The notes under the pieces were generated by a model. The model searched no databases and had not been told where the DNA came from. It saw only the letters and a list, made by a program, of their open reading frames with translations. A stretch of 24,486 nucleotides of DNA from a virus (Duplodnaviria; Heunggongvirae; Uroviricota; Caudoviricetes): the IMG/VR virus record IMGVR_UViG_2529292836_000011, positions 1 through 24,486 of that record; one strand, 5' to 3'. Of the stretch, positions 13,748 through 24,486 are shown piece after piece; the stretch's first letter is position 1, and each line of letters begins with the position of its first letter. A program made the position numbers and the translations under genes.

Positions 13748-15759
13748 TGAAAGTAACTGCAAATGGTAAGACATTTACCTTTCCTGATGGTACGAGCACG
13801 GAAGATATTGGGTCCGCCATTGATGAGTATTTTGCTGGTCAGTCAGCGCCAACACAACAAGGTGTTCAGCAATCGCCAGCAGACAACTCACTTGCATCAG
13901 GATATGCACAGCTTGCCACTCAGCAGAAGGAAGGACTAGATCGCTCTGCTGAGCAAGGGGCTGTTTTAGGTGCTGCAATGCGCGATGCCGTTACCGGTGA
14001 AAGCCGAATGACACCAGAAATGGAGAGACTGCAAAATGTTGGGGCTGCCCCTGAGTTGAACTCACTAAGCATGGATGCCCTGAAGGCTGGATGGTCTCAA
14101 CTTTTCGGCTCCGACGCGTCTCAGGAAAAGATTCTTCAGAGTATGGGGGCGAAATTAAGGCAGGATGAGAAGGGTAACACTATCGTTTCCCTGCCATCCG
14201 GTGATTATGCCCTGAACAAGCCAGGTTTATCACCGCAAGACCTGACTTCGTTTCTTGCTAATGCGTTAGCGTTCACACCAGCGGGCAGGGCTGGAACGGT
14301 GCTTGGTGCCATAGGGAAATCAGCTGCTACAGATTTAGCACTACAGGGTGGCACCAGCCTTGCTGGCGGAGAAGATATTGATCCTGCACAAACGGTAATT
14401 TCTGCTGGCATTGGTGGTGTTGGCAAGGGGCTGGAAAATACAGTTAGTGCGGTTTCCAGGGCTGTTCGCGGTGAGATGTCACCGGAAGCAAAGGCTGCTG
14501 TCGATTTTGCGTCGGAAAGAAACCTGCCGTTAATGACCAGTGACACGCTGAAAGATAAAACCTTTATGCAGAGTCAGGCTCAGACATTAGGCGAAAGAGT
14601 TCCTTTTTTTGGAACCGGTAAGAATCGGCTGAATCAACAACAAGCACGAGAAAATTTAGTCAGAACATTTAGCGATGGTCTGGGTGGCATTTCTGATAAA
14701 CAGCTTTATGAATCTGCGACTAAAGGGCAACAAAAATTCATTGAGGCAGCAGGAAAGCGATATAACCGCATAATTGACGCTATGGGGGATACCCCTGTCG
14801 ATCTCTCAAACACGGTAAAAGCTATCGACAATCAGATTGCCGTGTTAAGCCGCCCGGGCAAATCTCAGGATAGAGCCGCGGTAAAAGTCTTGCAGCAATT
14901 TAAAGACGATATCACCAGCGGACCCAATGACCTGCGTCTGGCGAGAGAAAACAGAACTGACCTTCGAAAGCGGTTCATGAATTCAAACGAGACTGTTGAT
15001 AAAGACACGCTCCAGAAAGCCAGCGATATTGTCTACAAGGCATATACAGCGGATATGAAAAAAGCAGTATCCCAAAAACTAGGCTCAGAAGAAGCTGCCA
15101 ATATGTCTAGGGTTGATCGCTCATGGGCTAGATTCAATGACATGATGGGAAGAACGCGCGTTCAAAAGGCAATAGCCAGCGGCAAGGCTACACCTGAGGA
15201 TGTAACAAAACTCGTTTTTAGCCAAAACCCATCAGAACGTTCTCAGCTTTACAGGCTTCTGGATGACAATGGTAGGCAAAACGCACGAGCAGCCATAGTT
15301 CAGAATGCTGTAGATAAGGCGACTGATCCGTCTGGAAATATTAGTGTTGAAAAGTTTATTAATGCGTTACACCGGAACAGGAAGCAATCAGCAACTTTCT
15401 TTAAAGGCGTACATGGAAAGGAACTGGACGGCGTTATTAAATACCTCAACGATACAAGACACGCGGCAAAAGCGAACGTTCAAAACTTAAATGGTCAGCA
15501 GCTTTATGGATTGTTAGTTGGTGGTGGCATCATAAACGCAGCAGTATTAGCGGGGATGCTAAAAACGGCTGCGTTTGTTGTTCCTGCTGCTGGTGTCGTA
15601 GGAGGAGCTGCGAAGGCATACGAAAGCCCTGTTATACGAAATGCCTTGTTACGTCTGGCAAATACGCCAAAAGGTAGCACAGCATATGACAGAGCGATCA
15701 GTACGGTCACACAATCGCTCACCAGAGTCGCACAGGCATCACAAAAAGAAGCTCAATAA
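13744..15759 (+). CDS. Ejection protein, gp16-like
   Basis: 671 aa in the gp16 position, ATGA overlap with the upstream gene, hydrophobic Gly-rich segment near the C-terminus. Confidence 0.7.
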
Positions 15760-15776: not shown

Positions 15777-16127
15777 CTAATTTTTATTCTTTGATCTCGT
15801 CCACAGGTAAAGAAGAGCAATGGCAAGACAGGAAACAGAGAATAGATAACCTACCTCATATGGTGCGCCAAAAAAATTAGCTATTGATACGGGCAAAAAA
15901 GCCGAAGCGATCAGAATTGAAAGGCAAAAAATAAGCCCAGTAACATAGTTTATTAAACTCTTAAATGAGAAACGTTTTGCTTGATTTACGGTCTCAGCGA
16001 GTGATCGCTTAACGATGGATAAAAGAAAATAGATGGCGACAGTAGCTAATGCCCCTTTCCACCAGTCTGGATATAGTTTTGCGACAATCAGCCCAAGGAA
16101 AACCATGATGACAGACTGAGCATTCAC
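15777..16127 (-). CDS. Small multi-pass inner-membrane protein (possible superinfection-exclusion moron)
   Basis: About 117 aa from a GTG preceded by AAGGAGG (5-nt spacer), with three to four hydrophobic helices. AT-rich. The ORF-track start at 16202 adds a non-hydrophobic extension. Convergent with the gp16-like gene. Confidence 0.55.
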   Translation of the reverse strand: MNAQSVIMVFLGLIVAKLYPDWWKGALATVAIYFLLSIVKRSLAETVNQAKRFSFKSLINYVTGLIFCLSILIASAFLPVSIANFFGAPYEVGYLFSVSCLAIALLYLWTRSKNKN

Positions 16128-16192
16128 ACCAACCTCCTTAGTTTTGCTCAGGATACCAGATGATAATGTGTAGTTGGAGTAGCGCGGTTGTA

Positions 16193-16282
16193 ATGCAAGC
16201 ATTTTGTTTTGGTTTTATGCTTGCTTGTATGTGTGTACAGTGTATATAATGCAAGCATACATCACAATAAAGGTGCTTGCAT
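16193..16282 (+). promoter_or_regulatory. Divergent promoter region with two copies of a palindromic operator (half-site ATGCAAGCAT, 14-bp spacer)
   Basis: ATGCAAGCAT at 16193-16202 pairs with inverted ATGCTTGC at 16217-16224. ATGCAAGCAT at 16249-16258 pairs with GTGCTTGCAT at 16273-16282. A TATAAT at 16245-16250 overlaps the second operator. Confidence 0.5.
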
Positions 16283-16283
16283 T

Positions 16284-17276
16284 ATGACTGAAAAGAAAAG
16301 TGGCGAAGGGAAAGCTAAGGGCGGTATCGCTCGCGCAAAGTCGCTGACTAAAGAGCAGCGTTCTGAAATAGCAAAGAAAGCAGCGGCTGCAAGATGGAAG
16401 GATAAACCATTAATTGCTACGCATAAGGGATCGTTCCAGCATGAATTCGGGATTGATGTTGAGTGCTATGTGTTAAATGATGATAACAAAACTGCCGTTA
16501 TTAGCCAGAGAGGCATGGGAGAAGCGATTGGTCTTGGCGAAGGTGGCAGCAGGTTGCCAAAGTTTATTCAGGGGAAAACTATTTCTCAGTATATCGGGCA
16601 TGAATTAAGGGCAAAACTTGAAAATCCTCTTATTTTTCAATACAAACAGGCGGGCACGAACACTCCAGCTAATCCTGTAATACATGGCTACGATGTAACA
16701 ATATTAATTGATTTATGTCGAGCAATCTCTAATGCTAAAGCTGAAGGTAAGTTGCTTTCCAGTCAGGAAGGGATTGCTAAGCAAGCCAGAATCATTATTG
16801 ATGCATCAGCCAAGGCGGGCATTCAGGGGCTTGTTTATGCTTTGGCAGGGTATGACAGAACAAAAGAAGAGGTAATTCAAGCATATAAGCGATATGTTGC
16901 TGAAGAGGCTCGTGAGTATGAAAGAGAGTTCACCCCTGAACTTTATGAGCATTGGTATCGTCTGTATGGTATAGACAAACCAGTTAGAGGGCGACCATGG
17001 GCGTTTAAATATCTTACGATAGATCACATTTATTACCCATTAGCCAGAAGTGAAGGAAAGGTATTTAATTTAGCAAAAACGTCAAAAGAAGAAAAAGGCA
17101 GCAAAAACGATAAAATACACCAGTTTTTATCAGAGGTTGGAGTTAAGGCTCTTAGAACCCAAATAGGTAAGGTTACTGGTATTGCAATGGTTTCTGATAC
17201 TCGAGAAGAGTATGAGAAATACATAGATGAAAAGGTTATTGGACAAAGAACCATAGACTTAAAAGATAAAGAATAA
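16284..17276 (+). CDS. Hypothetical 331-aa protein with a basic N-terminal tail (possibly P63C-domain / anti-repressor-like family)
   Basis: ATG at 16284 preceded by AAAGGTG. N-terminal KGGIARAKSLTKEQRSEIAKKAAAARW motif. Followed by a strong terminator. The ORF-track start at 16209 would run through the promoter and operators. Family assignment is tentative. Confidence 0.7.
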   Translation: MTEKKSGEGKAKGGIARAKSLTKEQRSEIAKKAAAARWKDKPLIATHKGSFQHEFGIDVECYVLNDDNKTAVISQRGMGEAIGLGEGGSRLPKFIQGKTISQYIGHELRAKLENPLIFQYKQAGTNTPANPVIHGYDVTILIDLCRAISNAKAEGKLLSSQEGIAKQARIIIDASAKAGIQGLVYALAGYDRTKEEVIQAYKRYVAEEAREYEREFTPELYEHWYRLYGIDKPVRGRPWAFKYLTIDHIYYPLARSEGKVFNLAKTSKEEKGSKNDKIHQFLSEVGVKALRTQIGKVTGIAMVSDTREEYEKYIDEKVIGQRTIDLKDKE

Positions 17277-17282
17277 GAAAAT

Positions 17283-17304
17283 CCCACCGTCAGGTGGGTT
17301 TTTT
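17283..17304 (+). terminator. Rho-independent terminator (CCCACC-GTCA-GGTGGG then TTTTTT)
   Basis: Perfect 6-bp GC-rich stem with a T6 run, directly after the 16284-17276 gene; an A-run upstream makes it potentially bidirectional. Confidence 0.7.
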
Positions 17305-17317
17305 ATAAGGAGTAATC

Positions 17318-17503
17318 ATGACCATAGAAGAACGTCTGAACAACATTGAGTTGAATCAAACCCTGCTTGACCAGCGACTTTCAGATCTTGAGCTTAAAGA
17401 TCTAGATGTGCAAATATCAGAAGCAGAAGCCAAGCTCTCCAGCTTAAACCACCGCAGGAAGCAAATCCGCGACAGAATTACTCGTGGACGCGGAGGCTGT
17501 TAA
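17318..17503 (+). CDS. Hypothetical small coiled-coil protein
   Basis: 61 aa, with AGGAG 7 nt upstream of the ATG. Heptad-like Leu/Glu pattern and a basic C-terminus (RRKQIRDRITRGRGGC). Confidence 0.5.
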   Translation: MTIEERLNNIELNQTLLDQRLSDLELKDLDVQISEAEAKLSSLNHRRKQIRDRITRGRGGC

Positions 17504-17580: not shown

Positions 17581-18117
17581 TCAAACAACCCACCAGTTTG
17601 CCTGATTGGATACCAGCCTTGCAGTTTTTATGGAATTAATTATGCCATGCTCAAGAGCCTTGTTAGCATCCAAAATGGTCGAGTCTGCTATCAGGGATGC
17701 CCACCTAATATGGGTTCCGATGTCGATATTGAACGTCTCAACGAAGCGATCAAGATCGTTATCGAGGCATTTCCCGTACTCTCTCAATCTGGCATGGTCG
17801 GCGGCTGGGGAGGCAAAGCACCATAATAGAGGATGTAACAGGAATCTTGATAATGGGTTTGCGAAACGTTCTGAGCCAGCCAGGAAAACGATATTAGCTA
17901 TGGATTCAACATTGCTTATGTTGTGAGTTCTAACGGTAACAGGGAGTGACTTAAGAAAGTTATACGCAGTAAAGCCAGCGGCAGTTTCCCCTCCCTGACT
18001 TGATATATGGATATTTAATTCAGTTGCGCCTTGAGATAATGCGGTGAGACAGTGGTTCTGAAGTTGCCCAACAGTGGCAGTGTTAACGGGGCATAAGAAA
18101 TGAATTGTGTGCAGCAT
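17581..18117 (-). CDS. ClpP-like (peptidase S14-fold) protein, N-terminally truncated; translationally coupled to mnt
   Basis: Ungapped match to the recalled ClpP core from the GG motif to the active-site Ser (ISSQGG for INSPGG; VESIAN for AASMGA). His-box RFANPLSRFLLHP for RFCLPNSRVMIHQP. The Asp position reads GIINSI for GLVDSI. Its ATG overlaps the mnt stop (TAATG). Confidence 0.5.
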   Translation of the reverse strand: MLHTIHFLCPVNTATVGQLQNHCLTALSQGATELNIHISSQGGETAAGFTAYNFLKSLPVTVRTHNISNVESIANIVFLAGSERFANPLSRFLLHPLLWCFASPAADHARLREYGKCLDNDLDRFVETFNIDIGTHIRWASLIADSTILDANKALEHGIINSIKTARLVSNQANWWVV

Positions 18118-18365
18118 TATTTTTCATCCTTACCATACATGGTCTTTAGCGTCTCAAGCAGCGCCTCTTTGAATTTGTCAGCTTCTTGCTGAGCAAATGA
18201 CTCAACTGACTTTGGCGACCTATCTTCATCAATCGCGGCTTGCAAAATCATGACGATCTCGGAGTTAACAGAGCGACCATTTTTTGATGCTCTGACAGCA
18301 AGAGCCTCGCGTAAAGATTCAGGGATTCTTACCGTAGTTGGAGAAATTGACACACCCTTTGCCAT
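18117..18365 (-). CDS. mnt: Mnt-like ribbon-helix-helix repressor
   Basis: 82 aa from the ATG at 18365 (AAGGTG upstream). RASKNGRSVNSEIVMILQAAI matches the Arc/Mnt signature (recalled P22 Mnt: RAEANGRSMNSELLQIVQDAL); C-terminus TLKTMYGK versus TLKDLYKK. Confidence 0.8.
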   Translation of the reverse strand: MAKGVSISPTTVRIPESLREALAVRASKNGRSVNSEIVMILQAAIDEDRSPKSVESFAQQEADKFKEALLETLKTMYGKDEK

Positions 18366-18479
18366 ATCACACCTTTGGTATTCAATTTGATAGCAAAGTG
18401 TATGCAAAAAAATTTTGACTAGATATACTCACTTTGATATCTTTTGTATTCGAAAAGAGTTGTTTGCGTGGAGGGTAAC
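18366..18479 (+). promoter_or_regulatory. Divergent mnt/arc promoter-operator region (immI-like)
   Basis: AT-rich 114-bp gap between divergent RHH repressor genes, containing TTGACT and TATACT/TATCTT-like hexamers. By analogy to P22 Pmnt/Pant; the operators were not mapped. Confidence 0.45.
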
Positions 18480-18632: not shown

Positions 18633-18864
18633 TTCGCTTGGATGCAGTAGTCAAAGAGATTGCGATTACCATTTTAAGACCAAATTTTGTTCATGGCGAA
18701 TCATTTGGCACGAACGAAAAATTGAGAAGAGAAAGAGTATTCAGTGGCAAGCGCACGTTTTCAGAAGTGATGCTTGATGCGGCAAAGAAATCAAAACAGT
18801 GAAGCCCCAACTGCGGGAACGGTCAGGGCTTCGGTTGTCAGTAAATCCGTGGAGAAAAACCAAC

Positions 18865-24471: not shown

Positions 24472-24486
24472 TGGTGTCCCCTGCAG
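24472..24486 (-). tRNA. argW: 3' end of a tRNA gene (acceptor arm plus CCA), consistent with tRNA-Arg argW; truncated by the window edge
   Basis: Reverse complement of the last 15 nt is CTGCAGGGGACACCA, matching the recalled 3' end of E. coli argW (...GGTTCGATTCCTGCAGGGGACACCA). Location next to the integrase start fits an attL. Confidence 0.5.

Follow-up and report, generated by a model that had tools for sequence, protein, structure and literature searches.

A self-contained, single-gene cargo cassette, made up of a promoter, four short DNA boxes, a gene of the P63C family and a terminator, lies in the late region of an Escherichia coli prophage of the P22-like (Lederbergvirus) type, represented by the virus record IMGVR_UViG_2529292836_000011. 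The stretch analysed, referred to as the window, is the whole 24.5 kb from position 1 to position 24,486 of that record. The favoured explanation is that the cassette is autoregulated through its boxes and that the body of its protein acts in phage defence in the manner of BstA, a prophage abortive-infection protein. On comparative sequence evidence this combined reading is given a probability of about 0.5. Taken by itself, autoregulation through the boxes is likely, and BstA-like defence has somewhat less than an even chance. The gene is an ordinary member of a catalogued family. What is new is the conserved box array, its link to a motif at the N-terminus of the protein, the probable relationship to BstA and the carriage of the family by a transposon.

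The gene is intact, with an ATG at 16284, a TAA at 17276 and 331 codons including the stop, and its product carries the Lys/Arg-rich N-terminal tail that the initial annotation had described: the open reading frame (ORF) opens MTEKKSGEGKAKGGIARAKSLTKEQRSEIAKKAAAARW and the basic N-terminus reads MTEKKSGEGKAKGGIARAKSLTKEQRSEIAKKAAAARWKDK. A longer ORF of 355 amino acids (aa) with a TTG start was rejected as an artefact, as the alignments of the family begin at MTEKK. The protein matches the Pfam family PF10546 (P63C) with 35.9 bits against a gathering cut-off of 26.1 (E = 1.2e-8, aa 202-289) and phrog_2384 (PHROG 2384) over its full length (E = 4.5e-103, aa 6-328), and is a full member of the family; PF10546 is likewise matched by 28/28 aligned relatives. 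An identical protein in E. coli bears the NCBI label 'P63C domain-containing protein'. Relatives are numerous (2766 in a 90%-clustered database, the best ones with 60-100% identity, and 2471 clusters in a 50%-clustered library) and come from phages, satellites, transposons and chromosomes of many phyla. Identity reaches 60-70% with proteins of Burkholderia, Ralstonia and Azotobacter and 46-68% with species representatives of Acidobacteriota, Myxococcota, Firmicutes, Chloroflexi, Verrucomicrobia and others. The homologues in isolated phages are all labelled hypothetical or just 'P63C domain-containing protein'. A literature search covering the family (P63C, PF10546) as well as the box sequence turned up no functional study of P63C, no mention of the box sequence in the sense of an operator, and no description of the box array, the N-terminal motif link or the transposon carriage. 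The Pfam entry reportedly defines P63C, after Iyer et al. in 2002, among the modular transcription regulators of DNA viruses. Apparent fusions of P63C with ABC transporter, Nramp and RelB domains in the representative library look like gene-calling or assembly artefacts and were not used.

Four copies of a 10-mer, ATGCAAGCAT or the nearly complementary ATGCTTGCAT, each with at most one mismatch, stand upstream of the gene and form two inverted pairs with start-to-start spacings of 24, 32 and 24 bp (Table 1). Elsewhere in the window there is one further match with a single mismatch, with about 1.5 expected. The array overlies the signals needed to express the gene: box 2 takes in a -35 element, TTGCTT, and box 3 runs into the -10 element, TATAAT, 18 nt further on. 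This pair of elements is read as the promoter of the gene from the consensus of the family, in keeping with the separate promoter that had been proposed in the initial annotation. The operator control suggested there is also supported, and the array, conserved across phyla, is more striking than could be seen by that earlier reader.

The cassette shares its slot, between the gene in the sieA position and mnt, with a small ORF termed orf61. In P22 itself this slot is empty, with zero genes from the sieA promoter to the mnt terminator, in agreement with the earlier placement of the window genes outside the P22 structural and immI sets. In sister prophages the flanks are conserved on both sides and the content varies: the Salmonella phage Emek (L001 3374-4247; L numbers designate the loci retrieved) has a DUF4065 protein with orf161, E. 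coli MS20673 and avian-pathogenic E. coli (APEC) strains (L004 2104-3128) have a 188-aa protein with a YafO-family toxin, and other strains have a second P63C allele. At this slot P22-like phages have a variable hot spot for cargo of the toxin type. When the slot variants are aligned, the similarity among cargo types stops a few bases left of box 1, and in this slot boxes occur only with P63C cargo and with neither the YafO nor the DUF4065 cargo.

Outside the slot, boxes also stand ahead of homologues in Azotobacter, Ralstonia, Burkholderia, Enterobacter and Salmonella. At least three canonical boxes are present in 48 of 80 genome loci, and the order AA-TT-AA-TT is found in 62 loci (57 distinct sequences) from Proteobacteria, Acidobacteriota, Firmicutes, Myxococcota and Abditibacteriota, with a modal start-to-start spacing of 23/31/23 bp. 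The family consensus has a -35 TTGCAT supplied by box 2, a 17-nt spacer, a TAnAAT overlapping the first two bases of box 3 and a Shine-Dalgarno sequence between boxes 3 and 4; in most homologues the start codon is the final AT of box 4 plus a G. The association holds from the side of the boxes as well. Scanning IMG/VR for the exact pair ATGCAAGCAT-N11-16-ATGCTTGCAT returned 40 contigs, and a P63C gene starts within about 110 bp of the pair in 35 of them, one of these genes being split by an insertion sequence and another cut at the locus end. Box pairs precede even homologues of just 24-34% identity. A host or phage repressor acting on the boxes was considered and rejected: boxes accompany the gene from phylum to phylum and are missing where the slot has other cargo, and the range of phyla with boxes makes a host factor unlikely.

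The five viral contigs with an exact pair and no P63C gene nearby (L104 4814, L105 6440, L106 1751, L112 8155 and L131 4143) could be orphan operators, targets or chance matches; in L112 the pair stands ahead of a small ribbon-helix-helix-like ORF and an integrase. Among phage homologues, ST104 orf23 has four boxes and gp34 of Gordonia phage Petra has more degenerate ones. The annotated start of ST104 orf23 (L135 3417-3452) is the ATG of box 3; from the family alignment and the box layout, its true start would lie 12 codons downstream (MSDKESKEPTGKSKGG...).

An array of this kind could in principle work in RNA, with a stem between boxes 3 and 4 sequestering the start codon so that control would be translational and not exerted through DNA operators. 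Each pair could indeed give a 10-bp stem with a 13-14-nt loop, and box 4 overlaps the start codon in most homologues, with the Shine-Dalgarno sequence in the loop. However, the overlap of the -10 element with box 3 places the predicted transcript start inside box 3, so that the 5' arm would be missing. Further, the arms are conserved by sequence and not by compensation (about half of the variants at position 10 of box 3 have a matching change in box 4), the 10-mers are individually close to palindromic, a property superfluous in an RNA stem, and an Rfam search of the box region gave no family and just spurious miRNA matches. Control by RNA hairpins is therefore judged very unlikely, and DNA operators are preferred.

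The candidate reader of these operators is the N-terminus of the P63C protein itself. It carries a basic two-helix motif, KGG..ARA..L..R..IA.KAA.ARW, whose helices are placed by AlphaFold2 at aa 10-20 and 23-39, and this motif is the part that stays constant while the body of the protein diverges. A profile of the motif was scored on the translated 5' ends of 124 loci. It was found in 117, which have at least three core boxes (94 loci), two boxes (18) or variant or decayed boxes (5). The motif is missing from seven loci, each with 0-1 boxes: two are disrupted genes, and the other five are intact genes of different lineages whose N-termini are unrelated. Within E. coli, the stretch 16186-16413, with the boxes, the promoter and the first codons, is 95-98% identical at the DNA level in about 64 genomes, and the P63C bodies behind it have just 54% protein identity; the near-identity of this 5' module over diverged bodies indicates that it is exchanged as a unit between alleles. 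Motif and operator also vary together in an acidobacterial clade (L030, L033, L037, L038, L042, L044, L051, L056, L061 and L070), where both the N-terminus and the operator, TACTTGCYCGRGCAAGTA, depart from the usual form. Negative autoregulation, in which the protein would bind the boxes through its N-terminus and repress transcription of its own gene, is the most economical interpretation.

In the acidobacterial clade, two TACTTGCYCGRGCAAGTA palindromes replace the four boxes and flank a TTGACT -35 element about 130 bp upstream of the gene, and the N-terminus has an AAKxLSxLGA extension and an altered second helix (EIARAAIQARW). Loci that bear a transposase gene have a palindrome resembling TACTTGCYCGRGCAAGTA, 'box 0' (ATGCTTGAnCGG..AAGCAT), ahead of box 1. 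In one viral contig (L115 3924-5299), an IS3-type insertion sits in the P63C gene just after the motif and leaves the boxes and a 41-codon KGG..ARW ORF intact.

The body of the protein is probably a distant relative of BstA. BstA of Salmonella prophage BTP1 is encoded downstream of cI, has a KilA-N-like N-terminal domain according to its authors, who used HHpred, and is neutralised by aba, a 63-bp DNA self-immunity element that covers -29 to +34 relative to the bstA start codon (Owen et al. 2021, PMC8585504). The bstA gene was retrieved via the published aba sequence and profiles were compared by hhalign, whose probability climbed with profile depth. The shallow profiles gave 6.6% (73 P63C sequences against one BstA sequence, E = 0.0055), 9.6% (73 against five, E = 0.0033) and 26% (117 against five, E = 0.00073), and the deepest comparison, of 117 P63C sequences with 55 distinct BstA sequences from IMG/VR, gave 81.2% (E = 1.2e-5). 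The deepest alignment spans 166 columns, P63C aa 59-249 against BstA aa 28-205, and a control with reversed BstA scored 0.1%. Three collinear motifs match between the two families, for example YVLNDDNKTAVISQRGMGEAIGLG in P63C and GVLNDGTPYLTGRGLAEMCGV in BstA. One of the three contains a cysteine that is nearly invariant in P63C (C145) and invariant in a five-sequence alignment of BstA (C108). A BLASTP search for homology of the P63C protein to the C-terminal part of BstA found nothing.

The likeness extends to the architecture of the two systems. Both consist of a single prophage protein of about 300 aa with a DNA-binding domain at the N-terminus (putative in P63C) and a helical C-terminal half, and each gene has a short DNA element that straddles its start codon. 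The two systems also differ: BstA lacks the extra N-terminal KGG..ARW module; bstA rides on the cI transcript, whereas the window gene, situated in the immI region between mnt and the sieA-position gene, comes with a promoter of its own; and aba is a 63-bp element with terminal CCCGCC direct repeats that is specific to the BstA variant, whereas P63C has four near-universal 10-bp boxes.

Genomic position points in the same direction. ST104 orf23, a P63C gene with four boxes, occupies exactly the slot between cI and N that holds bstA in BTP1. Other homologues lie downstream of cI in an Azotobacter prophage, between Q and the holin gene, between sieA and mnt in Salmonella, and, in Petra, within the integrase/repressor cassette. 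It is established in phage biology that the cI-N, Q-holin, sieA-mnt and integrase/repressor slots hold lysogen-expressed accessory genes. The accessory genes of P22-like and lambdoid prophages (sieA, sieB, rexAB, bstA) sit at the same positions as P63C cassettes, and cargo of these slots resembles the P63C cassette in being a self-contained unit of promoter, gene and terminator that varies between sister phages. Most such cargo is limited to related phages, whereas the P63C cassette is found across phyla at 46-68% identity. Collectively, the remote BstA homology, the homologue in the bstA slot and the toxin-type cargo of sister prophages make an anti-phage role plausible.

A protein of this build might also be sought among regulators of the Bro, KilA or antirepressor type, as a protein that binds specific DNA sequences or repressors and reprograms other prophages or host genes, with boxes that are merely autoregulatory and no role in defence. 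Bro-N, KilA-N and Ant antirepressor proteins have the modular build and the phage accessory context in common with P63C, and some structural evidence leans their way. The first AlphaFold2 model, made from 28 close relatives, was poor (predicted local distance difference test, pLDDT, 62), and Foldseek found nothing for it in the PDB; against BFVD the matches were weak singly, yet mostly to Bro-N, KilA, 'repressor domain' and antirepressor proteins, with E = 2.9e-3 for the best match to Bro-N. The invariant residues of P63C are mostly structural, with no evident catalytic constellation. However, support from sequences or profiles for this kinship was not found. Bro-N (PF02498) homology, suspected from the sequence pattern and the BFVD matches, was rejected after hhalign gave 0.2% and 2.7%, and hmmscan gave zero Bro-N matches up to E = 10. 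The Pfam models of KilA-N (PF04383) and AntA had zero matches too, leaving the tie to KilA-N indirect, via BstA. Thus, of the four families that the initial annotation had named for a homology search, P63C was recovered and Bro-N, KilA-N and AntA were not. The NCBIfam models likewise had zero matches for the 330-aa protein, and a sequence search of the PDB with it returned nothing. In addition, the best-supported relative, BstA, is a defence protein, and the prophage already has an antirepressor of its own, Ant, governed by Arc, Mnt and sar. A purely regulatory role is therefore regarded as unlikely.

The combined reading of an autoregulated cassette with a BstA-like body has several points against it. 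A probability of 81% in hhalign is suggestive and not proof, and the C-terminal halves of P63C and BstA align at low confidence only. The PADLOC-DB 2.0 models gave zero matches for the 330-aa protein, and defence genes are not enriched among the immediate neighbours of 80 homologues (150 proteins, examined with PADLOC). Further, the conservation of P63C across phyla, measured at 55-68% identity, is unusually high for a defence protein. As the boxes are near-universal and aba is variant-specific, a decoy role of the boxes would not be exclusive to the resident phage. With respect to autoregulation, a generic promoter scan called nothing in front of the gene, where the -35 element is weak; the 24/32/24 spacings of the window and the TTGCTT -35, with 3/6 positions matched, explain why the scan missed it. 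Finally, the boxes and the N-terminal codons are adjacent and a single 5' replacement removes both, so that their joint loss is weaker evidence for a functional link than the counts imply.

Under the combined reading, the protein would be built of three modules, with a basic two-helix N-terminus (KGG..ARA..ARW) at one end and the helical P63C domain at the other. The N-terminal module would bind the four ATGCAAGCAT boxes over the -35 element, the -10 element and start site, and the ribosome-binding site of its own gene, and would thereby shut off its promoter, giving a low and constant protein level in the lysogen that is independent of the Arc/Mnt and C2 circuits of the phage. The body would act like BstA, as a lysogen-expressed DNA-binding protein that blocks the replication of superinfecting phages, with abortive infection or exclusion as the outcome. 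In addition, the array of boxes might serve the resident phage as a DNA decoy and so relieve it during replication, in the way that aba works for BstA.

The reach of the family across phyla is explained by its status as a passenger: in 39 of the 80 genome loci, P63C is carried by an IS1-family transposon. In these loci a DDE transposase gene of about 290 aa stands divergent from the box region; its product matches the IS1 model at E = 1e-14 to 1e-19 with 62-68 bits, under the NCBIfam cut-off of 100, and its homologues are named 'IS1 family transposase' in RefSeq. Terminal inverted repeats, located by blastn-short, were found in seven loci; they are 20-27 bp long (GGTAGTGTCTCAGTTTGAAAT and variants), perfect or nearly so, and enclose 2.3-2.76 kb, with target duplications of 8 bp in three of the seven loci and 6 bp in two. 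The ends fit GGnnnTG, the end pattern of the IS1 family. Between the repeats lie the transposase gene, the P63C gene and a gene for a small KGG..ARW protein. The related loci thus resemble known IS1-family elements in their GGnnnTG-type ends, 8-bp target duplications and match of the transposase to the IS1 model, but differ in that the transposase scores under the cut-off and the element has three or four genes; none of the element is present in the window.

Four of the elements (L055 2911-5605, L062 777-3534, L093 2978-5654 and L032 3035-5561) measure 2.5-2.76 kb and have perfect 21-22-bp repeats (GGTAGTG..TCAGTTTGAAAT), with target duplications of 8 bp in L055, L062 and L093 and 6 bp in L032. 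These four also contain a further small ORF. The hosts of the elements belong to the Alpha-, Beta- and Gammaproteobacteria, Acidobacteriota, Firmicutes and Abditibacteriota. The small KGG..ARW proteins, of 70-95 aa (L139 1078-1287, L138 1545-1775, L041 3936-4205 and others), have the P63C N-terminal motif as their C-terminal half, with KGG..ARA..ARW preceded by KRPADVIGNAVKVMKIATGE or KRPRDxNQLAKxIVxxATGE; one is annotated 'histone H1'. They go with the IS1-family transposase whatever the passenger.

Carriage by a transposon raises the question of whether P63C and the small KGG..ARW protein are accessory factors of the element that control the transposase or transposition via the boxes, the phage copies being relics. 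The frequency of the divergent transposase, the enclosure of all three genes by inverted repeats and target duplications, and the occurrence of the 'box 0' palindrome with transposase-bearing loci would all fit such a role. On the other hand, the same transposase family is found with other passengers in place of P63C, on plasmids with a Clp-fold protease or an XRE-ImmA protein. Intact four-box cassettes occur without a transposase in P22-like, lambdoid, Burkholderia and Gordonia phages, and the window has neither a transposase gene nor a repeat remnant. A transposon-regulatory function is thus quite unlikely, and the cassette is better read as cargo.

If defence and transposition are brought together, P63C and its boxes might form a system of the BstA/aba type, in which the boxes, read by the extra KGG..ARW N-terminus, would serve both as operator and as copy-number-sensing decoy for self-immunity and which would have been spread by IS1-family elements and then captured by phages. 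This fuller proposal is tentative and on the doubtful side. If true, it would give a first handle on what the many P63C proteins do and would represent the first BstA-like defence carried by a transposon. The handles now available for P63C are the four-box element with its 30-residue motif, the probable kinship with BstA and the IS1-family transposon as a vehicle. Should the BstA-like reading hold, this defence family would be widened well beyond Gram-negative prophages, and P63C with its boxes would be a simpler and universal protein-DNA pair in which to study how DNA switches such proteins off. If it fails, there would still be a compact, portable and self-regulated expression unit that apparently works from Firmicutes to Proteobacteria.

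The cassette ends at an intrinsic terminator, and both this strong terminator and the 61-codon ORF with a good Shine-Dalgarno sequence behind it (orf61) are as the initial annotation described them. That annotation had further proposed that P63C and orf61 form an abortive-infection or toxin-antitoxin pair, and indeed the two ORFs are neighbours with the same orientation in the window, as they are in E. coli A2 and some Salmonella prophages. However, E. coli MS 21-1 and GCA_045171025 have an identical P63C gene with the ClpP-like gene directly behind it and orf61 absent. In Emek the terminator and orf61 stand behind the unrelated DUF4065/orf161 cargo, and the same hairpin follows the YafO variants too. 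Among 5426 complete genomes of E. coli, the orf61 region is present in 105 (with at least 80% coverage) to 235, the P63C cassette in 66 and the allele of this window in two. The strong terminator separates the two ORFs, and the loci of distant P63C homologues have zero relatives of orf61. The gene pair is hardly tenable: orf61 is an independent small conserved ORF and not a partner of P63C. Its frame and length are kept, and 9/16 differences from the Salmonella copy fall at third codon positions, from which it is probably a real small gene. By eye it has a heptad pattern (L7, I10, L17, L21, L24, V31), and all its matches are weak and to coiled segments (XhlA, E = 0.02; PbeC in PADLOC, E = 0.001).

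Table 1. Features of the P63C cassette and of its 3' flank in the window
Feature	Position	Strand	Basis
P63C-family gene, 330 aa	16284-17276	+	PF10546 and phrog_2384 matches
Mosaic 5' module: boxes, promoter and first ~43 codons	16186-16413	+	DNA comparison of E. coli alleles
Box 1, ATGCAAGCAT, 'AA' orientation, left arm of upstream inverted pair	16193-16202	.	exact match
Box 2, ATGCTTGCTT, 'TT' orientation, 1 mismatch; includes -35 TTGCTT (16221-16226)	16217-16226	.	
Predicted -10 TATAAT; final two bases shared with the start of box 3	16245-16250	+	sequence and family consensus
Box 3, ATGCAAGCAT; over -10 and predicted transcription start	16249-16258	.	sequence match
Box 4, GTGCTTGCAT; between Shine-Dalgarno (AAAGG, 16269-16273) and start codon	16273-16282	.	
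Basic two-helix motif, proposed box-binding module	16308-16400 (aa 9-39)	+	AlphaFold2 and co-occurrence
Region aligned to BstA N-terminal half, including KilA-N-like domain	16458-17030 (aa 59-249)	+	hhalign
Pfam P63C domain proper, helical (AlphaFold2)	16887-17150 (aa 202-289)	+	Pfam match and model
Intrinsic terminator CCCACCGTCAGGTGGG + T6; 6 pairs, 5 G-C; scores on both strands	17283-17298	.	
orf61, 61 codons, phrog_7586; Shine-Dalgarno AAGGAG at 17307-17312	17318-17503	+	PHROG match

To the left of the slot lie the gene of a gp16-type injection protein, which ends at 15759, and, on the minus strand in the sieA position, the gene of a small membrane protein. The 141-aa ORF listed there (15777-16202, minus strand) has its ATG within box 1; a perfect AAGGAGG (16133-16139) followed by a GTG at 16127 suggests a 116-aa membrane protein instead, and RefSeq gives 109 aa for the protein in sister prophages. 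The block 16125-16185 is kept irrespective of the slot cargo. The sieA-position protein is unmatched by the Pfam SIEA model, which does match the Salmonella counterpart in L009.

To the right, in order, follow the ClpP-like gene, the Mnt-like gene on the minus strand, Arc, the sar RNA, Ant and the tailspike. The ClpP-like protein (17581-18117, minus strand, 178 aa; Pfam CLP_protease, E = 2e-11) is related to head-maturation proteases, and its similarity to the Clp-fold passenger of an IS1-family element (L138) is not significant. Its gene lies directly downstream of the gene of the Mnt-like immI repressor (18117-18407, minus strand), with a 1-base overlap; P22 has orf59a only at this position, and the ClpP-like/Mnt-like pair recurs in further E. 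coli prophages. The sar antisense RNA of the P22 immI region is recognised at 18798-18864 on the minus strand (Rfam RF00262, 82 bits, E = 5e-17). Its position indicates that the listed 322-aa Ant ORF, with a GTG at 18799, is over-extended and that the real ant start lies downstream of sar.

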